Source: a virus
Lineage: Duplodnaviria; Heunggongvirae; Uroviricota; Caudoviricetes
Reading direction: 5' to 3' (one strand)
Virus record (IMG/VR): IMGVR_UViG_3300045988_115807
DNA: 46,701 bases
Part shown: one piece after another, positions 9,992 through 38,802 of the stretch
Numbering within the stretch: the stretch's first letter is position 1
How the letters are laid out: every line of letters starts with the position of its first letter
Made by a program: the position numbers and the translations under genes
The notes under the pieces: generated by a model
What the model was told of the DNA's origin: nothing
The model's database searches: none
The model's input: the letters and a program-made list of their open reading frames with translations, nothing else

Positions 9992-12900
9992 ATGGGTAAA
10001 GGCAGCAGTAAGGGGCATACCCCGCGCGAAGCGAAGGATAACCTGAAATCCACGCAGTTACTGAGCGTGATTGATGCGATCAGTGAAGGGCCGATTGAAG
10101 GTCCGGTGGATGGATTAAAAAGCGTGCTGCTGAACAGTACGCCGGTGCTGGACAGTGAGGGGAATACCAATATATCCGGCGTCACGGTGGTGTTCCGGGC
10201 AGGTGAGCAGGAGCAGACACCGCCGGAGGGATTTGAATCCTCCGGCTCCGAGACGGTGCTGGGTACGGAAGTGAAGTACGACACGCCGATTACCCGGACC
10301 ATCACGTCTGCAAACATCGACCGTCTGCGCTTTACCTTCGGTGTGCAGGCACTGGTGGAAACCACCTCAAAGGGTGACAGGAATCCGTCGGAAGTCCGTC
10401 TGCTGGTTCAGATACAGCGTAATGGTGGCTGGGTGACGGAAAAAGACATCACCATTAAGGGCAAAACCACCTCGCAGTATCTGGCCTCGGTGGTGGTGGG
10501 TAACCTGCCGCCGCGCCCGTTTAATATCCGGATGCGCAGAATGACGCCGGACAGCACCACAGACCAGCTGCAGAACAAAACGCTCTGGTCGTCATACACC
10601 GAAATCATCGATGTGAAACAGTGCTACCCGAACACGGCACTGGTCGGCGTGCAGGTGGATTCGGAGCAGTTCGGCAGCCAGCAGGTGAGCCGTAATTATC
10701 ATCTTCGCGGGCGCATTCTGCAGGTGCCGTCGAACTATAATCCGCAGACGCGGCAATACAGCGGTATCTGGGACGGGACGTTTAAACCGGCATACAGCAA
10801 CAACATGGCCTGGTGTCTGTGGGATATGCTGACCCATCCGCGCTACGGCATGGGGAAGCGTCTCGGTGCGGCGGATGTGGACAAATGGGCGCTGTATGTC
10901 ATCGGCCAGAATTGCGACCAGTCGGTGCCGGACGGTTTTGGCGGCACGGAGCCGCGCATCACCTGTAACGCTTACCTGACCACACAGCGCAAGGCGTGGG
11001 ATGTGCTCAGTGATTTCTGCTCGGCGATGCGCTGTATGCCGGTATGGAACGGGCAGACGCTGACGTTCGTGCAGGACCGACCGTCGGATAAGGTGTGGAC
11101 CTATAACCGCAGTAATGTGGTGATGCCGGATGATGGCGCGCCGTTCCGCTACAGCTTCAGCGCCCTGAAGGACCGCCATAATGCCGTTGAGGTGAACTGG
11201 ATTGACCCGGATAACGGCTGGGAAACGGCAACAGAGCTTGTGGAGGACACGCAGGCCATTGCCCGTTACGGTCGTAACGTCACGAAGATGGATGCCTTTG
11301 GCTGTACCAGCCGGGGGCAGGCACACCGCGCCGGGCTGTGGCTGATTAAAACGGAACTGCTGGAAACGCAGACCGTGGATTTCAGCGTCGGCGCAGAAGG
11401 GCTTCGCCATGTACCGGGCGATGTTATTGAAATCTGTGATGATGACTATGCCGGTATCAGCACCGGTGGTCGTGTGCTGGCGGTGAACAGCCAGACCCGG
11501 ACGCTGACGCTCGACCGTGAAATCACGCTGCCATCCTCCGGTACCACGCTGATAAGCCTGGTTGACGGAAGTGGCAATCCGGTCAGCGTGGAGGTTCAGT
11601 CCGTCACCGATGGCGTGAAGGTAAAAGTGAGCCGTGTTCCTGATGGCGTTGCCGGATACAGCGTGTGGGGTCTGAAGCTGCCGACGCTGCGCCAGCGACT
11701 GTTCCGCTGCGTGAGTATCCGTGAGAACGACGACGGCACGTATGCCATCACTGCCGTGCAGCATGTACCGGAGAAAGAAGCCATCGTGGATAACGGGGCG
11801 CACTTTGACGGTGACCAGAGCGGCACGGTGAATGGTGTCACGCCGCCAGCAGTGCAGCACCTGACTGCCGAAGTCACCGCAGACAGCGGGGAATATCAGG
11901 TACTGGCGCGATGGGACACGCCGAAGGTGGTGAAGGGGGTGAGCTTTATGCTTCGCCTGACCGTGGCAGCGGATGACGGCAGTGAGCGGCTTGTCAGCAC
12001 AGCCCGGACGACGGAAACCACATACCGCTTCAGGCAACTGGCGCTGGGGCGTTACACGCTGACAGTCCGGGCAGTAAATGCGTGGGGGCAGCAGGGCGAT
12101 CCGGCGTCGGTATCGTTCCGGATTGCCGCACCGTCAGCGCCGTCGCGGATTGAGCTGACTCCGGGCTATTTTCAGATCACCGCCACGCCGCATCTTGCCG
12201 TTTATGACCCGACGGTACAGTTTGAGTTCTGGTTCTCGGAAAAGCGGATTGCGGATATCAGGCAGGTTGAAACCACAGCCCGCTATCTTGGCACGGCGCT
12301 GTACTGGATAGCTGCCAGTATCAATATCAGGCCGGGCCATGATTATTATTTTTACATCCGCAGTGTGAACACCGTTGGCAAATCGGCATTCGTGGAGGCT
12401 GTTGGCCAGCCGAGTGATGATGCATCCGGCTATCTGGATTTTTTCAAAGGAGAGATAGGGAAAACCCATCTGGCTCAGGAGTTGTGGACGCAGATTGATA
12501 ACGGTCAGCTTGCGCCTGACCTGGCGGAAATCAGAACGTCCATCACGGATGTCAGTAATGAAATCACGCAGACCGTCAATAAGAAACTGGAAGACCAGAG
12601 TGCAGCGATCCAGCAGATACAGAAGGTTCAGGTTGATACAAATAATAACCTGAACAGCATGTGGGCTGTGAAGCTGCAGCAGATGCAGGACGGACGCCTT
12701 TATATCGCGGGTATTGGTGCCGGTATTGAAAACACCCCTGACGGCATGCAGAGTCAGGTGCTGCTGGCGGCAGACAGGATTGCGATGATTAATCCTGCGA
12801 ATGGCAACACAAAGCCGATGTTTGTTGGGCAGGGCGATCAGATATACATGAATGAAGTGTTCCTGAAATATCTGACGGCTCCCACCATTACCAGCGGCGG

Positions 12901-13471
12901 TAATCCTCCGGCATTTTCCCTGACACCGGACGGGCGGCTGACGGCGAAAAATGCCGATATCAGCGGTAACGTGAATGCGAACTCCGGGACGCTCAACAAC
13001 GTCACGATTAACGAGAACTGTCGGGTTCTGGGAAAACTGTCCGCCAACCAGATTGAAGGTGATCTCGTTAAAACAGTGGGCAAAGCTTTCCCCCGTGACT
13101 CCCGTGCACCGGAACGGTGGCCATCAGGGACCATTACCGTCAGGGTTTATGACGATCAGCCGTTTGACCGGCAAATTGTTATTCCAGCGGTGGCTTTCAG
13201 CGGTGCCAGACATGAACGGGAGAATAGCGATACTTATTCGTCATGCCGCCTGATAGTGAAGAAAAACGGGGCTGAAATTTATAACCGAACGGCTCTGGAT
13301 AATACTCTGATTTACACGGGTGTTATTGATATGCCTGCAGGCAGTGGCGTAATGACACTGGAGTTTTCGGTATCAGCATGGTGGGTAAATGGCTGGTATC
13401 CCACAGCAAGTATCAGCGATTTGCTGGTTGTGGTGATGAAGAAAGCCACCGCAGGCATCAGTATCAGCTGA
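9992..13471 (+). CDS. J: central tail fibre / host specificity protein J
   Basis: 1159 aa; first ~1000 aa near-identical to lambda J from memory; the C-terminal ~150 aa diverge from the lambda LamB-binding domain. Confidence 0.95.
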
Positions 13472-14202: not shown

Positions 14203-16581
14203 ATGGCAGCAGTAAAAATCTCAGGTGTGCTGAAAGATGGTGCGGGAAAACCAATACAGAACTGCACTATTCAACTGAAGGCAAAGCGTAACAGCACCAC
14301 GGTACTGGTGAACACGGTGGCCTCTGAAAATCCGGATGAAGCCGGGCGTTACAGCATGGATGTTGAGTATGGTCAGTACAGCGTCACCCTGCTGGTTGAA
14401 GGTTTTCCGCCTTCACATGCCGGGACCATTACCGTCTATGAAGGTTCCAGACCAGGTACGCTGAATGATTTTCTCGGTGCCATGACGGAAGATGATGTCA
14501 TGCCGGAGGCATTGCGTCGTTTTGAGGCAATGGTGGAAGAAGCGGCACGCAACGCCGAAGCCGCCTCTCAGAGCGCAGCGGCGGCAAAGAAATCCGAAAC
14601 TGCAGCGGCTTCATCGAAGAACGCGGCGAAAACCTCAGAAACGAATGCAGCTAACAGCGCACAGGCGGCAGCGTCCTCGCAGACTGCATCGGCAAACTCC
14701 GCGACAGCAGCCAAAAAATCAGAAACCAACGCGAAAAACAGCGAGACAGCCGCAAAGACGAGCGAAACCAACGCGAAGTCCAGCCAGACGGCAGCGAAAA
14801 CCAGCGAAACGAATGCCAAAGCCAGTGAAACTGCCGCGAAAAATAGCCAGAATGCAGCAGCCGAAAGCGAGAGCGCGGCAGCCGGTTCTGCGACTTCAGC
14901 AGCTGGATCAGCAACTGCTGCGGCTAACAGCCAGAAAGCTGCGAAGACGAGTGAAACTAACTCAAAGTCCAGCCAGACGGCAGCGAAGACCAGCGAAACG
15001 AATGCCAAAGCCAGCGAAACTGCGGCGAAAAACAGTCAGGATGCAGCAGCCGAAAGCGAGAGTGCTGCAGCTGGCTCTGCAAGCGCGGCGGCTGCTTCTG
15101 CCACTGCATCAGCCAACAGTCAAAAAGCTGCAAAAACCAGTGAAACCAACGCAAAGGCGAGCGAGACTGCGGCGGCTAACTCGGCGAAAGCATCCGCAGC
15201 AAGCCAGACGGCTGCAAAAGCAAGTGAAGACGCAGCCAGAGAGTATGCAAGCCAGGCTGCGGAGCCGTATAAACAAGTTTTGCAGCCGCTTCCCGATGTG
15301 TGGATACCGTTTAACGATTCACTGGATATGATTACGGGCTTTTCGCCGTCATATAAAAAGATTGTTATTGGTGATGATGAAATAACGATGCCTGGCGATA
15401 AGGTTGTAAAGTTTAAACGCGCATCGAAAGCAACCTATATTAATAAATCTGGTGTGCTGACAGAGGCTGCCATTGACGAGCCACGATTTGAACGTGATGG
15501 CCTGCTTATTGAGGGGCAAAGAACAAACTACATGCTCAATTCGGAAAACCCTGCCAGTTGGGGGCGATCGTCAAATATGGATGTTCCCGAAACCGGGAAG
15601 GATAGTTTTGGTTTTACCTATGGAAAGTTCGTCTGTAACGATTCTCTGATTGGGCAAACCTCAGCCATTAATATGGCATCAATTGCTGCAACAAAGTCAG
15701 TTGATGTCTCAGGCGATAATAAATACGTGACAACCTCATGTCGTTTTAAAACAGAACTGCAGGTAAGGTTGCGTATCCGGTTTGATAAATATGACGGTAG
15801 CGCAACAACTTTTCTTGGTGATGCGTATATTGATACACAAACGCTTGAAATTAATATGACAGGCGGTGCTGCCTCAAGGATTACAGCGAGAGTCAGAAAG
15901 GACGAAGCTACCGGATGGATTTTTGCAGAGGCAACAATTCAGGCAATTGATGGGGAGTTAAAAATAGGTTCTCAGATACAGTATTCTCCTAAGCAGGGCG
16001 GGGCAACCGTATCTGGTGACTATATTTATCTGGCCACCCCACAAGTAGAAAATGGGCCTTGTGTATCATCTTTTATTATATCAGGAACGACGGCGGCGAC
16101 CCGCGCAAGCGATATAGTTACAGTTCCCATTAAGAATAATCTTTATAATCTTCCTTTTACGGTTCTTTGTGAGGTACATAAGAACTGGTATAAAACGCCA
16201 AATGCAGCGCCGCGTGTTTTTGATACCGGCGGTCATCAAACCGGAGCGGCTATTATTCTTGGGTTCGGATCTTCGGCAGATGGGCCAGACGGATTTCCTT
16301 ATTGCGATATTGGAGGAGCTAACAGACGGGTAAACGAAAACGCATCGCTTGAAAAAATGGTTATGGGGATGCGTGTAAAATCAGATCAGTCTACGTGCTC
16401 AGTAAGTAACGGGCGCATATCCAGCGAAAAAAAGACTACGTGGTCCTATATTCAGAACTCTGCAACCATCCGTATTGGAGGCCAGACTACAGCAGGGTTA
16501 CGTCATTTATTTGGTCATATCAGGAATTTCAGAATATGGCACAAGGCATTGACTGATGCTCAGGTGGGGGAGTCAATCTAA
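14203..16581 (+). CDS. stf: side tail fibre protein (lambda Stf-like N-terminus, Ala/Ser/Thr-rich repeat shaft, divergent C-terminal domain)
   Basis: MAAVKISGVLKDGAGKPIQNCTIQLKAKRNSTTVLVNTVASENPDEAGRYSMDVEYGQYSVTLLVEGFPPSHAGTITVYEG... matches the lambda Stf N-terminus; ATG at 14203 preferred over the GTG at 14197 used by the ORF track. Confidence 0.85.
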   Translation: MAAVKISGVLKDGAGKPIQNCTIQLKAKRNSTTVLVNTVASENPDEAGRYSMDVEYGQYSVTLLVEGFPPSHAGTITVYEGSRPGTLNDFLGAMTEDDVMPEALRRFEAMVEEAARNAEAASQSAAAAKKSETAAASSKNAAKTSETNAANSAQAAASSQTASANSATAAKKSETNAKNSETAAKTSETNAKSSQTAAKTSETNAKASETAAKNSQNAAAESESAAAGSATSAAGSATAAANSQKAAKTSETNSKSSQTAAKTSETNAKASETAAKNSQDAAAESESAAAGSASAAAASATASANSQKAAKTSETNAKASETAAANSAKASAASQTAAKASEDAAREYASQAAEPYKQVLQPLPDVWIPFNDSLDMITGFSPSYKKIVIGDDEITMPGDKVVKFKRASKATYINKSGVLTEAAIDEPRFERDGLLIEGQRTNYMLNSENPASWGRSSNMDVPETGKDSFGFTYGKFVCNDSLIGQTSAINMASIAATKSVDVSGDNKYVTTSCRFKTELQVRLRIRFDKYDGSATTFLGDAYIDTQTLEINMTGGAASRITARVRKDEATGWIFAEATIQAIDGELKIGSQIQYSPKQGGATVSGDYIYLATPQVENGPCVSSFIISGTTAATRASDIVTVPIKNNLYNLPFTVLCEVHKNWYKTPNAAPRVFDTGGHQTGAAIILGFGSSADGPDGFPYCDIGGANRRVNENASLEKMVMGMRVKSDQSTCSVSNGRISSEKKTTWSYIQNSATIRIGGQTTAGLRHLFGHIRNFRIWHKALTDAQVGESI
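14755..15132. repeat. 189-bp (63-codon) tandem duplication inside stf, built from 21-bp heptad-like subrepeats
   Basis: Protein segment KTSETNAKSSQTAAKTSETNAKASETAAKNSQNAAAESESAAAGSA... recurs 63 aa later; DNA copies begin at 14755 and 14944. Low-complexity shadow ORFs on both strands confirm the periodicity. Confidence 0.8.
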
Positions 16582-20825: not shown

Positions 20826-21160
20826 CAATACAAGAACATAAACAGAGAACATAAAAATAAAGTAATGACACAAACACAATAAAGAACATAAATAAAGAAT
20901 TAGAACCAATGCTAAATAAAGCAGTACACAAAATGAGAACATTACACCAAATGAGAACATTAATCAAGAACATAACGAAACATAATTCCCCATTATACGC
21001 GCGTATAATGGGGAATTATGTGCTGATTTTCAGAACAAAGTCAAGGAACAAATTTTAACGTTCCGATATTGTGTTTTTATTTATTATCCGTTATTGTGTT
21101 CTGTTAGTTTGTGGCTAAGTTAACGCGTTATTAGTTATCTTATTCTCAAATTGTGTTACG
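20826..21160. repeat. AT-rich tos-like region: AGAACA(T) direct repeats left of, and inverted TGTTCT/TTGTGTT repeats right of, the telomere palindrome
   Basis: CAAGAACATA, GAGAACATA, AAGAACATAAAT, GAGAACATTA (x2), CAAGAACATAACG on the left; CAGAACAAAG, TATTGTGTT (x2), TGTGTTCTG on the right. Confidence 0.6.
20980..21021. other. telRL-like telomere resolution site (42-bp perfect palindrome, telO core)
   Basis: ACATAATTCCCCATTATACGCGCGTATAATGGGGAATTATGT is perfectly self-complementary; centre between 21000 and 21001; central CCATTATACGCGCGTATAATGG matches my recollection of the N15 telO core; 171 bp upstream of telN. Confidence 0.85.
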
Positions 21161-21191: not shown

Positions 21192-23093
21192 ATGAGCAAA
21201 GTAAAAATCGGTGAATTAATAAACTCACTTGTTAGCGATGTTGAGTCAATAGATAACTCTGACCGTCCTCAAGGGGAGAAAACAAAAAAAATAAAGGCTG
21301 TTGCATTAAAATTTAAAAATGCATTATTTAATGACAAGCGAAAGTTTAGGGGGAAAGGATTAGAAAAAAGAATTACAGCCAACACATTCAATGCCTATAT
21401 GAGCAGGGCCAGAAAACGGTTTGATGATAAACTTCATCATAGCTTTGAAAAAAATATACATCGCCTATCTGAAAAGTATCCTTTATATAATGAGGAGCTA
21501 TTGTCATGGCTTTCTCTACCTGCTGCCGATATTCGCCAGAGAATGTCAGCTTTACAGGCAAAATTAAAATTAATTCTCCCTCTATCAGAAGATTTATCTA
21601 ATATCAGAATTGGCGATAACAAAAGTCATAATAAGTTATTGAAATTATCAAATAAATATAAAGAGTGGCAATTCGCCATTTCTGATTTAACTAGCGATAA
21701 CTGGAAAGATAAGCGCGATTATTTATATAAATTACTACAGCAAGGATCTGCCTTACTTGAGGAGTTGAATCAGCTAAAAGTTAACCATGAGATTCTCTAT
21801 CATCTTCAACTAAGCCCTGCCGAACGTGCATCTATCCAGCAACGATGGGCGGACGTTCTGCACAATAAGAAACGTAACGTGGTGGTCATTGATTACCCTA
21901 AATATATGCAAGCTATTTACGATATTATAAATAGCCCTGCTACATTAAATAATCTAAACACTCGTTCAGGTATGGCTCCTTTGGCATTTGCACTTGCTGC
22001 ATTGTCAGGAAGACGAATGATTGAGATTATGTATCAAGGTACATTTACTGTTTCTGGTAAGTATACCGTTGATTTTTTAGGCCAAGCTAAAAAAAGAACT
22101 TCTGATAATATAACCAGAAAAATATATACATTATGCGAAGCAAAAACATTTGTTTATTTAATAAATGTACTTCGCTCATGCCCAGCAGCATCTGATTTTG
22201 ATGATGTCGTTAAAGGTTATGGAGATAACGACACACGCTCTGAAAACGGACGTATTAATGCCATATTAGCAAAGGCTTTTAACCCGTGGGTTAAATCATT
22301 TTTTAAAGATGACCGCCGTGTTTATAAAGATAGTCGTGCTATTTATGCCCGTATTGCGTATGAAATGTTTTTCCGCGTAGATCCTCGTTGGAAAAACGTA
22401 GATGAAGATGTTTTCTTTATGGAAATTTTAGGCCATGACGATGAAAACACTCAATTACACTATAAGCAATTCAAGCTGGCCAACTTCTCAAAGACATGGA
22501 GGCCAAATACTGGAAACGAAAATACCAGGCTGGAAGCATTGCAGCAGCTTGATGACGAAATGCCTGGATTCGCCAGAGGAGATGCCGGGGTTCGTCTGCA
22601 TAACACAGTTAAGCAGCTGGTAGAGCAGGACCCCTCTATAAAAATCACGAACAGCACTCTAAGAGCGTTCAAATTTAGCCCAACAATGATTAGTCGATAC
22701 CTGGAATTTGCTGCTGATGCTCTGGGGCAATTTGTTGGCGAAAACGGACAATGGCAACTGAAAATAGATACTCCAGAAATCGTTATGCCTGACGAAGAAG
22801 AACTGGAAGCAATACCTGAACTGGCGGATGAATTATCAGAGGATGACGATCTGGATGACGACGAAATTGAGATAGAGGAAGAGGAAGAGGAAGAGGAAGA
22901 TAGCGTAGAAGAACAGCAACCGCCTGCACCTTCTTCGCCTGTATCTAAGCCGGTATTTAAGCCGGTGAGAAATATTGGTGATGGCTCATACGTTGTTGAG
23001 TTTCATTATAATGGCCAGAATTATGCGTGGTCCGGCAGTGCAAACAGCCCCATGTCAGCAATGCAGTTAGCATGGCTGACATATTTCGGTTAA
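21192..23093 (+). CDS. telN: protelomerase TelN (telomere resolvase)
   Basis: 633 aa; MSKVKIGELINSLVSDVESIDNSDRPQGEKTKKIKA...RSGMAPLAFALAALSGRRMIEIM...HDDENTQLHYKQFKLANF... matches N15 TelN from memory; acidic Glu/Asp-rich C-terminal stretch. Confidence 0.95.
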   Translation: MSKVKIGELINSLVSDVESIDNSDRPQGEKTKKIKAVALKFKNALFNDKRKFRGKGLEKRITANTFNAYMSRARKRFDDKLHHSFEKNIHRLSEKYPLYNEELLSWLSLPAADIRQRMSALQAKLKLILPLSEDLSNIRIGDNKSHNKLLKLSNKYKEWQFAISDLTSDNWKDKRDYLYKLLQQGSALLEELNQLKVNHEILYHLQLSPAERASIQQRWADVLHNKKRNVVVIDYPKYMQAIYDIINSPATLNNLNTRSGMAPLAFALAALSGRRMIEIMYQGTFTVSGKYTVDFLGQAKKRTSDNITRKIYTLCEAKTFVYLINVLRSCPAASDFDDVVKGYGDNDTRSENGRINAILAKAFNPWVKSFFKDDRRVYKDSRAIYARIAYEMFFRVDPRWKNVDEDVFFMEILGHDDENTQLHYKQFKLANFSKTWRPNTGNENTRLEALQQLDDEMPGFARGDAGVRLHNTVKQLVEQDPSIKITNSTLRAFKFSPTMISRYLEFAADALGQFVGENGQWQLKIDTPEIVMPDEEELEAIPELADELSEDDDLDDDEIEIEEEEEEEEDSVEEQQPPAPSSPVSKPVFKPVRNIGDGSYVVEFHYNGQNYAWSGSANSPMSAMQLAWLTYFG

Positions 23094-31535: not shown

Positions 31536-31784
31536 ATGAGATTTATTGCTTATAATAACCGCATGAAACCAGAAGAACTTATTCGCCACTTTGGCAGTGT
31601 AGAAAAAGCAGCGGCTGGGGTAGGTGTAACACCCGGTGCTGTTTACCAATGGTTAACCGCTGGAGAGATTCCTTCATTGCGGCAAAGTGATATTGAAGTT
31701 CGTACTGCTTACAAGCTGAAGAGTGACTTTACAACTCGGCGGGTAAAGCAGTCGATTAAGGAGAGCCGTAAGCGTGGAGCTTGA
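31536..31784 (+). CDS. cro: Cro-like HTH regulator
   Basis: Small HTH protein (…GSVEKAAAGVGVTPGAVYQWL…) divergent from cB; true start may be the ATG at 31563 (MKPEEL). Confidence 0.7.
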   Translation: MRFIAYNNRMKPEELIRHFGSVEKAAAGVGVTPGAVYQWLTAGEIPSLRQSDIEVRTAYKLKSDFTTRRVKQSIKESRKRGA

Positions 31785-32484
31785 GTATATACGCAGCTGC
31801 GTATCCACGGCATTGGCTGATATTCATTATCGCCAGCGTGGCATCCTAGAGGTCCAGCTTGAGCAGATGCGTCTAGGCAGATCAGGACGCTTTAACAATA
31901 AACCAGTCCGGTCAATCAGTGTAGGTGATGATAACTCATACGAAGTGTCCGTTCCTGCTGAGCCGGTTAGATTCCACCAGGGGAAAACATTTAAACAATC
32001 ATCAATGTTGCTCACTGATATTGATTTTCAGAGCGCCAGCTGGCGCAGGGCTATTGGTCAGTTGAATAACGAGGAATCAGCCTGGCTTTATTATTGCTAC
32101 GGATGCAAGCCTGATTACAACAATGATGTGATTGTTTGTCAGTGGTTATGGCTTGATTTTCTGGTTGCTCATTCGGGGGGCGGCTTTAAAAAAATGAAGG
32201 CCTCCACGAAAAAAGCCATGCGGAAATTGATTTATTACGCGGCACAGCAGGTTAAATCAGAACTTACGTGTGCTGAGGCAGTTGATGAGAGAGAACAGGA
32301 CAGGCATCTGAGTTTTCTACTGAATATATCTATTGATAGCTGGAGACAAGATTATAAAGAACGCTGGCTTTTAATTAAGTCGCGATGTCTGAGCTTAAAT
32401 CGAACTGCATTATTAAATGCGGCGGAGAAGCGCAGTGAAATCATCAAACGCCATCGGGCAGGAAGTGCCATTCTGCCTTTGTAA
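31774..32484 (+). CDS. putative late-gene antiterminator (Q-like)
   Basis: 236-aa ORF immediately after cro, as in N15 (cB-cro-Q); Cys-containing YYCYGCKPD segment; assignment is by position, not strong sequence recall. Confidence 0.4.
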   Translation: MELEYIRSCVSTALADIHYRQRGILEVQLEQMRLGRSGRFNNKPVRSISVGDDNSYEVSVPAEPVRFHQGKTFKQSSMLLTDIDFQSASWRRAIGQLNNEESAWLYYCYGCKPDYNNDVIVCQWLWLDFLVAHSGGGFKKMKASTKKAMRKLIYYAAQQVKSELTCAEAVDEREQDRHLSFLLNISIDSWRQDYKERWLLIKSRCLSLNRTALLNAAEKRSEIIKRHRAGSAILPL

Positions 32485-32494
32485 ACAAGTTATG

Positions 32495-32737
32495 TTCAGG
32501 AAACCGTCGAAGCCAGAATTAAGGTATTCGGGGGTAAGAAATGAATATGTTATCTGGTGTCCAACTTGTGGTTACAGGACACGACCAGATAGTAATAAGC
32601 AGTCTGTAATTGCCGATTGGTATTTATCAAATCAGCCAGGTAATAAGCATATAGAAAATCTTTGGATTAAGCGTTACTTGGAAATCAGAGAGGGTGCGAC
32701 CGTGGTCGCACAAGAAAATGAAAATAACGCCATTTAA
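32495..32737 (+). CDS. small hypothetical protein with zinc-ribbon-like motif
   Basis: MFRKPSKPELRYSGVRNEYVIWCPTCGYRTRPDS...; internal start of ORF 32417-32737; no clear RBS. Confidence 0.3.
   Translation, partial: FRKPSKPELRYSGVRNEYVIWCPTCGYRTRPDSNKQSVIADWYLSNQPGNKHIENLWIKRYLEIREGATVVAQENENNAI
32694..32711. repeat. sopC-like centromere palindrome
   Basis: GTGCGACCGTGGTCGCAC: 8-bp inverted arms with a 2-bp spacer. Confidence 0.65.
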
Positions 32738-32921: not shown

Positions 32922-32944
32922 ATAAACGTTGAGGAGAATTATTC

Positions 32945-33544
32945 GTGACTAATCAGATTATTTACGACAGGAAACGGTCTGATGTAATGATTGACCTTGA
33001 AACAATGGGTACTAACACATGTGCTCCAATTGTTTCTATCGGGGCAGTGTTTTTTTCTCCAGAAAGTGAGGAATTAGGTCCTACTTTTTATGTACCAGTG
33101 AATCTCAGAAGCTCGATGTTGAATGGTGGTGTCGCCGATGGTGATACCATTTTATGGTGGTTGAAACAGAGCAAGGAAGCCAGAGCCGCAATTTGTACTA
33201 ATGATGCCCTTGATATTAAGGATGCACTTTTTGAATTATCACACTTTATTACTTGCCATGCATGTAATTTAAAAAAATTGAAAGTATGGGGAAATGGAGC
33301 AACGTTCGATAATGTAATTTTACGCGGTGCTTATGAGCGCGTTGGCTTAGCCTGTCCGTGGGAATATTTTAATGATCAGGATGTTCGAACAATCGTTAAC
33401 CTTGGTCAGTTTATTGGTTTTAATCCTAAAAAAGATATGCCATTTGATGGCGAACGACACAATGCCCTGGCTGATGCTATTCATCAGGCTAAATATGTAT
33501 CAGCAATTTTCTCCCGTCTTGTAAAAGGGCAAGGAGAATCGTAA
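32945..33544 (+). CDS. 3'-5' exonuclease, DEDDh (DnaQ/RNase T-like) family
   Basis: GTG start with GAGGAG RBS; motifs MIDLETMG (Exo I), WGNGATFD (Exo II), HNALADA (Exo III). Confidence 0.8.
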   Translation: MTNQIIYDRKRSDVMIDLETMGTNTCAPIVSIGAVFFSPESEELGPTFYVPVNLRSSMLNGGVADGDTILWWLKQSKEARAAICTNDALDIKDALFELSHFITCHACNLKKLKVWGNGATFDNVILRGAYERVGLACPWEYFNDQDVRTIVNLGQFIGFNPKKDMPFDGERHNALADAIHQAKYVSAIFSRLVKGQGES

Positions 33545-33963
33545 TGGCAAAGGCTTTTACACCAGAACAGAGGGAAGAACTGAATAAACAAATTGTGGAA
33601 CTCGTGCGCCTGAATGGACGAGGAACGGTTAGGCAACTTGCGGATGAAACTGGTATTAGCCGGTGTGCTGTTAGTCGTTTATCAAGAGAGCTTGCTGCCA
33701 GTGGTGATTTGTATATCTCTGGCTCCGGGATATTTCTGTCTGCACAAGCACGCAAGGACTGGCAAAACGCCCGTAAAAAACTATCAAGAGTAAAGCCGAA
33801 GACATCGGTAGTGGTTGATCCAGACCTTATCTGGTCATTACCTGACGGAGAAATACGTCGTTACGACAGGCGCTTGAACATGATTTGTCACGATTGCCGG
33901 AAAAGTGAAGTTATGCAGCGTGTGCTGGCTTTTTATCAGGGAAATTTTCAGGAGGTGGCGTAG
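33544..33963 (+). CDS. hypothetical DNA-binding protein (winged-helix-like)
   Basis: ATG overlaps the upstream stop; ...RGTVRQLADETGISRCAVSRLSRELAASGDLY... HTH-like segment. Confidence 0.55.
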   Translation: MAKAFTPEQREELNKQIVELVRLNGRGTVRQLADETGISRCAVSRLSRELAASGDLYISGSGIFLSAQARKDWQNARKKLSRVKPKTSVVVDPDLIWSLPDGEIRRYDRRLNMICHDCRKSEVMQRVLAFYQGNFQEVA

Positions 33964-36231: not shown

Positions 36232-36519
36232 TCAATAGACGGCATTAATATTAATCGTTGCACCGCATGCTTGGGCATATTTTGATAAAGTTTTCATGCT
36301 TGCCCCTAAAGGATTGCTTTCCAGGCGGCTGATAGCTGACGGGCGCAATCCCATTCGTTCAGCCAGAGCTGACTTCGTTAAACCTGCTCTTTCCCTCATT
36401 TCGTATAACATTTCGACCATCTCCAGCTCTTTATCGGCCTCTTCATATCCTTTGATGGCTTCTGGAGTGTTGAGAAGTTTTTCTTTTACTTCGTTAAACG
36501 GGATGCCTTTCGCTTTCAT
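36232..36519 (-). CDS. HTH (XRE-family) antitoxin, HigA-like
   Basis: ...RERAGLTKSALAERMGLRPSAISRLESN... HTH; start overlaps the toxin stop by 1 nt (TGATG). Confidence 0.7.
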   Translation of the reverse strand: MKAKGIPFNEVKEKLLNTPEAIKGYEEADKELEMVEMLYEMRERAGLTKSALAERMGLRPSAISRLESNPLGASMKTLSKYAQACGATININAVY

Positions 36520-36830
36520 CAGTTCATCTCCTTCAGGCGAGTTCTGGCGATTTCGATAGCCTTCACCGGTGTTTTCTGTGTCTTTTTTACAAATGCATGC
36601 AATAGATAAATTTCGTTACCAGTCGCGTAGGCGTACAGCGTTCTTGCGATGTTTTTATCCCCTACTCGTAGTTCAAAAAGCCCTCCACCTATTACACGGC
36701 TATGGGGCATCTTCAGTTTGTTGCCTTCCTTCTCCAGTCGCTCAATTAATCTGGTCATGCGACCTCGCAAATCATCTGGTAGTTCAAGCAGTTCATCCAG
36801 TGCTGCAGGGTGGGTTATCACGTTAAACAT
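36519..36830 (-). CDS. RelE/ParE-superfamily toxin, HigB/Gp49-like
   Basis: 103 aa; toxin-first operon order with a downstream HTH antitoxin, typical of HigBA / Gp49-like modules. Confidence 0.7.
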   Translation of the reverse strand: MFNVITHPAALDELLELPDDLRGRMTRLIERLEKEGNKLKMPHSRVIGGGLFELRVGDKNIARTLYAYATGNEIYLLHAFVKKTQKTPVKAIEIARTRLKEMN

Positions 36831-37592: not shown

Positions 37593-37725
37593 GCCTGAAA
37601 AGTGGGCGCAGGACAAGTTGCAGCTTGTCCTGCGGTCAACCCATGCCAGAGCTATAGGCTGAACCTAAAGCCCACCCGCGATGCGCATCGCCGGGTTAGC
37701 TTACCCAGGCAAAAAAATAATAGCT

Positions 37726-38802
37726 ATGTTCAAAACCACTAATATTCATGGCGCGCAACTCGTTTGCGCAGATTCTCTGCAATTTATCAAAACCATCCCT
37801 GATAACTCGGTCAATTTGATTGCAACAGACCCACCATACTTCGGCGTAAAGGCTAACGCATGGGATAACCAGTGGGATAGCGATGCTGACTTTTTGGGGT
37901 GGATTGATGAATTTTTGGCAGAATTTTGGCGGATATTGGCCCCTAATGGCAGCCTGTATATGTTTACCGGCTCTCGCCTTGCGTCAAAAATTGAATTATT
38001 AACTCGCGACCGTTTCAATGTTCTGAACCATATCATTTGGGCTAAACCCAGTGGTATGTGGCGCGGTTGTCATAAAGAAAGTTTAAGGGCTTATTTTCCT
38101 GCCACTGAAAGAATATTATTTGCAGAGCATTACGGCGCGTCAGGTTATGCTAAAGGTCAGTCAGGTTATGCTTCAAAATGTGCAGATTTAAGAAAAAATA
38201 TTTTTTCTCCACTAATTGATGCTTTTTCGCTGGCTCGCCGTCAGTTAGATATATCAGCCGCAGACATTAATTCAGCAACAGGAAAGCAGATGTGTTCGCA
38301 CTGGTTTTCTTATTCGCAGTGGCGGCTTCCATCATTAAGTGATTTTAATAAACTATGCGAATTATTTCGCAGGAAGGCAGATTCACTCGGTGTCCCGTGT
38401 CCATATCCTTTTAATGTTGATTATTCAGAACATGAAAAGCGTTATAGCGATCTGAAATTGCGTTATGAGGAAGTAAAGAAGCAGTATGATGATTTGAAGG
38501 CTCAGTATGAAAATTTGCGCCGCCCATTTCATGTTACTGCTGATGTACCTTATACCGATGTATGGGAGTTTCCTCCTGTGCAATATTATCCTGGCAAGCA
38601 CCCATGTGAAAAACCTGCAGCGATGATGGAACATATTATAAAAAGTAGTTCCCGCCCCGGAGATATCGTTGCCGATTTCTTTATGGGATCAGGCTCTACT
38701 ATTAAAGCCGCGCTGAAGTTAGGTCGTCAGGCAATCGGTATTGAGATTGAGGGTGAACGTTATCTTCAGACAGTTGATGAAGTGAAAAAGTTATTTGAGT
38801 AA
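37726..38802 (+). CDS. DNA methyltransferase (DPPY motif; N6-adenine or N4-cytosine, beta-class)
   Basis: LIATDPPYF (motif IV) near the N-terminus and FFMGSGST (motif I) near the C-terminus; start could instead be 37681. Confidence 0.8.
   Translation: MFKTTNIHGAQLVCADSLQFIKTIPDNSVNLIATDPPYFGVKANAWDNQWDSDADFLGWIDEFLAEFWRILAPNGSLYMFTGSRLASKIELLTRDRFNVLNHIIWAKPSGMWRGCHKESLRAYFPATERILFAEHYGASGYAKGQSGYASKCADLRKNIFSPLIDAFSLARRQLDISAADINSATGKQMCSHWFSYSQWRLPSLSDFNKLCELFRRKADSLGVPCPYPFNVDYSEHEKRYSDLKLRYEEVKKQYDDLKAQYENLRRPFHVTADVPYTDVWEFPPVQYYPGKHPCEKPAAMMEHIIKSSSRPGDIVADFFMGSGSTIKAALKLGRQAIGIEIEGERYLQTVDEVKKLFE

Follow-up and report, generated by a model that had tools for sequence, protein, structure and literature searches.

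A predicted DexA-like DEDDh 3'-5' exonuclease encoded among the early genes of an N15-like linear phage-plasmid from Escherichia coli

The exonuclease gene described here lies in a 46,701-nucleotide stretch of viral DNA (hereafter the window), which we found to be an N15-like linear phage-plasmid of E. coli carrying a protelomerase, SopA/SopB and a RepA of 1331 aa. The window also encodes a CI-like repressor, Cro, Q, and a lambda-type terminase with structural genes, and an integrating phage was rejected as the carrier of the gene. A perfect palindrome precedes the protelomerase gene; both its location and its form are those expected for a telRL site, and we refer to it as telRL-like. The two landmarks of the linear element are as follows:

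20980-21021, perfect 42-bp palindrome, about 170 bp upstream of the protelomerase gene
21192..23093, TelK/TelN-type protelomerase gene

The exonuclease gene is found in the rightward operon, in the order cro, Q, a Lar-like ORF, a small ORF, the exonuclease, DUF977, DUF4752 and two DUF551 genes. It is co-oriented with cro and Q, and the genes are tightly packed. The features used below are:

31536..31784, plus strand, cro (PF14549 P22_Cro, E = 2.4e-22)
31774..32484, plus strand, antiterminator Q (PF06323 Phage_antiter_Q, E = 2e-84)
32417..32737, plus strand, 106-aa ORF with four Cys that overlaps the 3' end of Q, weak Lar-like zinc-ribbon
32931..32936, plus strand, GAGGAG, Shine-Dalgarno-like, 8 nt 5' of the GTG
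32945..33544, plus strand, exonuclease CDS (199 aa, stop included), GTG start and TAA stop
32987..32989, plus strand, alternative ATG start (M15), giving the 185-aa product called by PGAP (WP_032143256.1 in NZ_LT906558.1)
32987..33010, plus strand, Exo I, MIDLETMG, residues 15-22 (D17 at 32993-32995, E19 at 32999-33001)
33287..33310, plus strand, Exo II, WGNGATFD, residues 115-122 (D122 at 33308-33310)
33458..33478, plus strand, Exo III, HNALADA, residues 172-178 (H172 at 33458-33460, D177 at 33473-33475)
33544..33963, plus strand, DUF977 winged-helix gene (PF06163, E = 1e-29)

The three motifs that the first-pass annotation had quoted are read directly in the 199-aa ORF. The sole caveat on this ORF is its start codon, and the choice between GTG and ATG is uncertain. 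The GAGGAG at 32931..32936 favours the 199-aa form starting with the GTG at 32945, while the NCBI PGAP start is the ATG at 32987, giving 185 aa. In an alignment of 21 relatives, the close relatives carry about 4 residues ahead of the MIDLE motif, and residues 1-8 of the longer form are predicted to be disordered in the AF2 model. Public protein collections contain both forms: 228 contigs carry the exact 185-aa sequence (P0122), and 171 carry a 199-aa protein (P0123) of the same 90% cluster. The enzyme core and its catalysis are independent of the start choice.

We then asked to which family the protein belongs. The Pfam scan assigned it to PF16473 (Rv2179c-like 3'-5' exonuclease) with E = 4.4e-68 and 228.9 bits against a cutoff of 27, and the match spans profile positions 2-176 of 177. 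PHROG 255 'exonuclease' also matched, with E = 1.7e-81. Searching a database at E <= 1e-5 gave 2642 relatives, with PF16473 present in all of the best 120. The protein is a single-domain, typical PF16473 member. In the PDB, T4 DexA chains (8KEL, 8KEN) were the sole significant matches both in a search with the single sequence (E = 1.4e-7) and in a profile search (8KEL, E = 6e-15). A direct hhalign comparison with DexA gave a probability of 98.5%, and T4 DexA itself also scores in PF16473, at 79.9 bits. No Rv2179c-type chain came up in either of these PDB searches, so it is the Pfam profile alone that links the protein to Rv2179c.

The structural comparison led to the same relatives. An AF2 model built from 21 sequences reached a pLDDT of 85.4 and a pTM of 0.84, and it shows the RNase H-like alpha/beta fold of the DEDDh superfamily. 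The best Foldseek match of this model was DexA 8kel (E = 1.3e-10, TM 0.72), and DexA chains of 8kel and 8ken occupied ranks 1-5, followed by RNase T, a DnaQ domain, REXO2 and the oligoribonuclease Orn. There were 130 PDB matches at E <= 0.001, the best 50 of which were all DEDDh exonucleases.

The predicted catalytic residues are conserved throughout. D17, E19, D122, H172 and D177 were invariant in the 21 relatives, which share 57-99% identity, and the same five did not vary in two bridging alignments extending to T4 DexA, at 22-25% identity, and to T4-like DexA proteins. In these alignments D17 and E19 fall on the acids of DexA IIDFETMG, D122 on D119, and H172 and D177 on H186 and D191; the five residues thereby share the columns of the DexA catalytic set named by Kang et al. 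2025 (PMC12153337). The protein accordingly carries the D-x-E of Exo I, the acid of Exo II and the H-x4-D of Exo III, with His and not Tyr, that define the DEDDh superfamily, and it keeps the TI-x-WW-x2-QS-x-EAR helix of the PF16473 family. Profile comparison was where the first-pass annotation had staked its reading, naming misaligned catalytic residues as one outcome that would speak against it, and there the residues do align. Its description of a compact, stand-alone DEDDh 3'-5' exonuclease is borne out by the profile, the fold and the residue alignment, and the protein is very probably catalytically competent as such an enzyme.

The further label 'DnaQ-like' holds at the level of the superfamily, given the DEDDh fold and residues, but not at that of the DnaQ/RNase T family, since PF00929 scored only 13.9 bits against a cutoff of 24 and covered the Exo I segment only. 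NCBIfam PRK09145 scored 11.2 bits against a cutoff of 189, and no NCBIfam family or equivalog scored above its cutoff. Oligoribonuclease was likewise rejected as the family, which is Rv2179c/DexA (PF16473). The name 'exodeoxyribonuclease VIII', given in PV340565.1 and some Shigella records, is a mislabel with no RecE similarity, because the Pfam scan at E <= 1 gave only PF16473 and PF00929. In RefSeq the identical protein is named '3'-5' exonuclease'. Taken together, these results identify the gene as an intact, already annotated member of the large Rv2179c/DexA family of phage exonucleases.

The position of the gene bears on when it may be expressed. The exonuclease stop codon and the ATG of DUF977 share 1 nt in the sequence TAATG, and translational coupling of the two genes is probable from this overlap. 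In a crude promoter scan, no sigma-70 promoter was predicted directly upstream of the exonuclease gene, and just a 9-of-12 match was seen inside the gene, at 33210-33239; a scan for strong terminators between Q and the exonuclease gene found none. By analogy with phiKO2, the late promoter would be situated past this region, ahead of the methylase and lysis genes. The first-pass annotation had placed the gene in the early region. We agree with this placement, because the gene follows cro and the antiterminator gene Q on the same strand and upstream of the late and lysis genes, the scan gave no convincing promoter or terminator that would set it apart, and the phiKO2-like late promoter would lie further on. 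Gene order and the crude promoter scan suggest that the exonuclease gene is probably silent in the repressed prophage. The 106-aa ORF upstream matches PF14354 with E = 3.6e-4 and 21.1 bits, under the cutoff of 28.6, and is present in identical form, unannotated, in PV340565.1.

We further studied the distribution of the gene. Of 5426 complete E. coli genomes, 17 carry this allele at >=98% DNA identity, in 20 places that are all on plasmids; none is chromosomal. The allele is also found in two phage records, PhiR46_1 and YDC107_1, and 29 plasmid records have an intact copy of the gene with >=95% protein identity. Relatives at the protein level turned up in 722 of 50,697 phage records, with hosts in many genera, and in 98 plasmid records. 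The plasmids are non-mobilizable in 92 of the 98 cases, many of which we take to be phage-plasmids. In chromosomal lambdoid prophages, the leftward early operon has relatives with 58-71% identity at its distal end, beside xis/int, where YfdP/YfdQ-type genes accompany them. The PF16473 family also occurs in lytic phages.

Some neighbourhoods of homologues point to DNA end processing or nucleotide metabolism. In a P22-like phage (g341c), the recombination module includes a 56%-identical homologue, flanked by erf/ssb on one side and abc2 on the other. At another locus (L040), a gene of the PF04447 dATP/dGTP pyrophosphohydrolase family is immediately upstream of the homologue, and one protein (P0112) combines PF16473 and PF04447 domains. 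In another prophage a 5'-deoxynucleotidase is encoded six genes upstream of the homologue in one operon, and in Bacillus phage PK-3 an HD-domain protein is encoded immediately upstream. Beside the gene in the window, no erf/bet/recT-type recombinase was recognisable, so the argument from recombination modules is borrowed from other phages; the nucleotide-hydrolase neighbours seen elsewhere are likewise absent from the window.

On these grounds we propose the following function. The gene would be transcribed within the rightward early operon, as its order suggests, and the protein would appear chiefly once the prophage is induced or when a cell is infected, rather than while the prophage is repressed. 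Judging from the sequence and the model, two Mg2+ would be coordinated by D17 and E19 of Exo I, D122 of Exo II and D177 of Exo III, the water that attacks would be activated by H172, and 5'-monophosphates would be released singly from a free 3'-OH end. By analogy with T4 DexA, the substrate would most likely be DNA, and the 3' ends of host or phage DNA may be trimmed or degraded during lytic growth. This trimming may feed nucleotide salvage and/or recombination-type end processing, which is the weakest step of the proposal. Considered as a whole, a metal-dependent DexA-like 3'-5' exonuclease of the early operon that trims DNA 3' ends in lytic growth is the best explanation of the gene, and we hold it with somewhat more belief than doubt. 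For the role in particular, namely the trimming of DNA ends in the lytic phase in aid of salvage or recombination, we see the odds as about even. Recombination, replication fidelity and the degradation of defence RNAs, as raised by the first-pass annotation, are possible roles.

A homologue with reported antiphage activity allowed a closer comparison. Kang et al. 2025 (PMC12153337) reported that EcD, a DexA homologue of E. coli, digests T4 DNA while sparing unmodified dsDNA and shields E. coli against T4 even when its expression is only leaky, and they termed it HREX. In the same work, W152 of DexA stacks on 5hmC, and D90 of DexA is a tetramer residue that is Ala78 in EcD. We recovered an EcD-type sequence from IMG/VR through the 17-nt forward cloning primer printed in that paper, which matched 26 loci, seven of them with an EcD-type gene; five of the seven are near-identical among themselves, and L032 and L037 make up the rest. 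The 23-nt string of the reverse primer had no match in IMG/VR, and the one match of a 20-nt version, at a place without an exonuclease ORF, was dismissed as chance. The recovered sequence has 189 aa, starts with MIDTET and carries Ala at 78 as the paper states. We accepted it as EcD because the Ala78 and the MIDTET start both agree; the printed reverse primer has one extra A relative to the recovered C-terminus, where the match to HAK9828821.1 may be inexact. Given that the EcD-type gene is found on viral contigs of IMG/VR, EcD itself is phage- or prophage-borne.

The substrate is the point at which an RNA-directed role would depart from the proposal above: as an RNA 3'-end exonuclease like Rv2179c or RNase T, the protein would act during phage development by trimming or degrading transcripts of the host or the phage, the tails of tRNAs or sRNAs, or short oligoribonucleotides. 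PF16473 takes its name from the M. tuberculosis exoribonuclease Rv2179c; this founding member is reportedly an exoribonuclease, which keeps RNA among the possible substrates. RNase T, REXO2 and Orn are the next structural neighbours after DexA, and many database records name the relatives '3'-5' exoribonuclease'. However, these names have spread by homology and not by experiment, the PDB searches led to DexA and to no Rv2179c-type chain, and DexA and EcD, the closest members with biochemistry, were both assayed on DNA. RNase T acts on DNA too, and the fold therefore leaves the substrate undecided. On balance we consider an RNA-directed role unlikely. A role in defence has been considered on the model of EcD: a superinfection-exclusion nuclease would selectively digest the incoming modified DNA (5hmC or other) of T-even-like phages and so protect the carrier cells. 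EcD is a PF16473-type homologue with reported activity against T4 (Kang et al. 2025, PMC12153337), and the EcD-type sequence, 35% identical to the exonuclease, is itself on phage or prophage DNA. Against this, the residue signature of that paper is missing (F142, Q155/F156 and D93 stand in its place), and the gene lies past cro and Q in a repressor-controlled early operon, which is atypical for genes expressed from a prophage. We lowered the defence reading for these two reasons and regard it as quite unlikely. PADLOC gave no defence-effector match and only a weak match to a generic Cas-associated DEDDh profile (E = 0.0017), and so offers no tie to a known defence system.

The opposite role, already raised by the first-pass annotation, in which the enzyme destroys linear nucleic acids of host immunity such as retron msDNA, cDNA made by reverse transcriptases or linear oligonucleotide signals, would suit an early gene amid small accessory genes, with a weak Lar-like (restriction-alleviation) ORF just upstream, and stand-alone exonucleases are widespread in unrelated phages. 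Yet the Lar-like match is under the Pfam cutoff. A DEDDh exonuclease requires a free 3'-OH end, and on established enzymology cyclic oligonucleotides, which the first-pass annotation had put forward for assay and which have no 3' end, would be unlikely substrates for a strict exonuclease. One literature search on DEDDh, phage and anti-defense returned nothing on the PF16473 family, and a search for PF16473 returned nothing. We consider anti-defence very unlikely. A role specific to hairpin-ended linear replicons, in telomere or cos-end processing or in the switch between plasmid and lytic replication, has in its favour that N15 gp41 and phiKO2 gp39, both DEDDh exonucleases, and the present exonuclease are all encoded after Q. 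There is also a distant PF16473-type match in the Vibrio telomere phage Valp1, whose authors list exonucleases among genes 'often associated with telomeric bacteriophages'. This association comes from three genomes, without statistics, and PF16473 is common in integrating lambdoid prophages, beside xis/int, and in lytic phages, so the family is not tied to linear replicons. To our knowledge, plasmid maintenance of N15 needs only repA, telN and the telomere site, which also speaks against such a role, and we rate it as extremely unlikely. A broader proposal, that N15-like telomere phage-plasmids keep a post-Q DEDDh exonuclease of either PF00929 or PF16473 for a specific job, whether in the linear-replicon life cycle or as an exclusion nuclease recognising a non-5hmC modification through F142 and Q155, appears decidedly unlikely. 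The DexA-like early exonuclease acting on DNA 3' ends is the reading we carry forward.

The exact protein is already in public databases and belongs to a known family. It is a routine member of a very large family of phage exonucleases, has been annotated before, and has small discovery value in itself. It has modest value as context, since it allows an enterobacterial subfamily to be set against EcD, the closest relative with activity data at 35% identity. An exonuclease that lacks the EcD recognition signature is also a useful comparison for testing the HREX model.

Among known systems, T4 DexA is the best structural and PDB sequence match and is likewise a phage-encoded, stand-alone, non-polymerase 3'-5' exonuclease. 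However, the two share only 22-27% identity, and DexA, with 227 aa, has insertions of 7 residues past the second strand and of 13 residues ahead of the Trp152 region, and it ends in a long acidic tail. F142 stands where DexA has W152, and the region around D169 differs in shape. DexA comes from a lytic phage whose DNA contains hmC, whereas the present gene belongs to a temperate phage-plasmid. RNase T and oligoribonuclease/REXO2 share the DEDDh fold (Foldseek E 8e-9 to 1e-5, TM 0.6-0.7) but have a sequence identity of 16-22%.

EcD is similar in its PF16473-type fold, its size, its conserved catalytic residues and its occurrence on E. coli mobile elements, and aligns with the exonuclease at 35% identity over 184 residues (E = 4e-32). 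The residues by which Kang et al. account for 5hmC recognition and for dimer-only behaviour differ. The Trp of EcD corresponding to DexA W152 is F142 here, while EcD-type sequences and most enterobacterial relatives have Trp in this column. The Glu of EcD at DexA D169 corresponds to Q155/F156, with no Asp or Glu within three positions, and Ala78 of EcD, at DexA D90, corresponds to D93, so that the loss of the tetramer Asp reported for HREX is not seen. At 25-35% identity this residue mapping is uncertain by about one position, including in the Q155/F156 loop. The context also differs, as the present gene lies in a repressed early operon.

The closest likeness in gene position is to N15 and phiKO2, in which a stand-alone DEDDh exonuclease of PF00929 (gp41 and gp39, respectively) is the first annotated gene after Q. 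In all three elements the exonuclease is just downstream of Q in the early-right operon, with two small ORFs in between in the window. The N15 and phiKO2 proteins share the DEDDh chemistry but belong to another Pfam family. Beyond the Exo I motif, homology to either was undetectable (hhalign probability 0.8%), and shared descent was rejected. N15 gp41 has a C-terminal Lar-like domain, and the window has its weak Lar-like ORF just upstream of the exonuclease. BLASTP found no homology between this ORF and the gp41 domain, the Lar-like call being weak, and no Lar-like element was found beside phiKO2 gp39. From the sequences, the post-Q exonuclease of N15-like elements looks like a case of non-orthologous replacement. 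Given that two unrelated DEDDh families occupy one operon position, these three genomes suggest that the exonuclease activity itself is useful and selected there, which is testable by deletion.

The exonuclease of the window (199 aa, PF16473) is labelled 'exodeoxyribonuclease VIII', the name of RecE, in PV340565.1 (10625-11224), a public record carrying the same gene region, and in Shigella sonnei protein records (P0123, a member of its 90% cluster). This identity was rejected because no RecE-like similarity was detectable in the protein, and on sequence comparison the label is an annotation error inherited from other records. In a comparison of the whole element with Escherichia phage YDC107_1 (CP025712.1), the match lay on the opposite strand and reached only 96.9-98.3% identity over 91% of the tested half. 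On one of two readings, the window may come from another isolate of the phage-plasmid type to which YDC107_1 belongs.

Three further features of the window are as follows.

20980-21021, a perfect 42-bp palindrome with halves ACATAATTCCCCATTATACGC and GCGTATAATGGGGAATTATGT
36519-36830, minus strand, a toxin gene of the Gp49/HigB type (PF05973, E = 2.5e-29)
37681-38802, plus strand, an N6/N4 DNA methylase gene (373 aa), which precedes the lysis genes

The protelomerase gene (21192..23093) lies about 170 bp downstream of the palindrome, whose place and form are both those expected of the telRL telomere-resolution site. In related plasmids, the counterpart of the toxin gene is annotated as a RelE/ParE toxin, with an HTH antitoxin adjacent.

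We found that nucleotide-hydrolase genes repeatedly adjoin or stand near PF16473 exonuclease genes elsewhere (loci L040 2703-4570, L004 1097-4570 and L011 1-973, and the database protein P0112). A gene of the PF04447 dATP/dGTP pyrophosphohydrolase family lies directly upstream of one such exonuclease gene, and the two domains are also joined in a single two-domain protein; elsewhere, an HD-domain gene is directly upstream, and a YfdR-like 5'-deoxynucleotidase gene is found six genes upstream. The recurrence of these neighbours hints at a nucleotide-pool function for PF16473 exonucleases. A homologue with 56% identity to the window exonuclease is located within the P22-type recombination module of Salmonella phage g341c (L005 2769-4849), between erf/ssb and abc2 (anti-RecBCD).

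EcD, a PF16473-type exonuclease of E. coli, was described as a 'bacterial' anti-T4 exonuclease (Kang et al. 2025, PMC12153337). Using the forward primer printed in that paper, we found an EcD-type sequence on the IMG/VR contigs L016, L021, L031, L034 and L037. The printed reverse primer is one base off relative to the C-terminus of the recovered sequence. Since the sequence sits on contigs of a viral collection, EcD appears to be cargo of phage or prophage DNA.

The genes behind the antiterminator gene Q were compared with those of N15 and phiKO2.

Window 32417-32737, plus strand, a 106-aa ORF overlapping the 3' end of Q
N15 (L012) 12161-13075, gp41, the first annotated gene after Q, a stand-alone DEDDh exonuclease (PF00929)
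phiKO2 (L047) 14575-15183, gp39, the first annotated gene after Q, a stand-alone DEDDh exonuclease (PF00929)

The window ORF carries four cysteines in the pattern CLC...CPTC, and it matched the Lar-like restriction-alleviation family PF14354 weakly, under the cutoff (E = 3.6e-4). PV340565.1 contains an identical copy, and no CDS is annotated at this position in either PV340565.1 or NZ_LT906558.1. In N15 gp41, a Lar-like domain is fused to the exonuclease. In the window, two small ORFs separate Q from an exonuclease of a different family, PF16473 (32945-33544). Neither gp41 nor gp39 showed detectable homology to the window exonuclease; the conserved position behind Q in the three elements thus looks to have undergone non-orthologous replacement.
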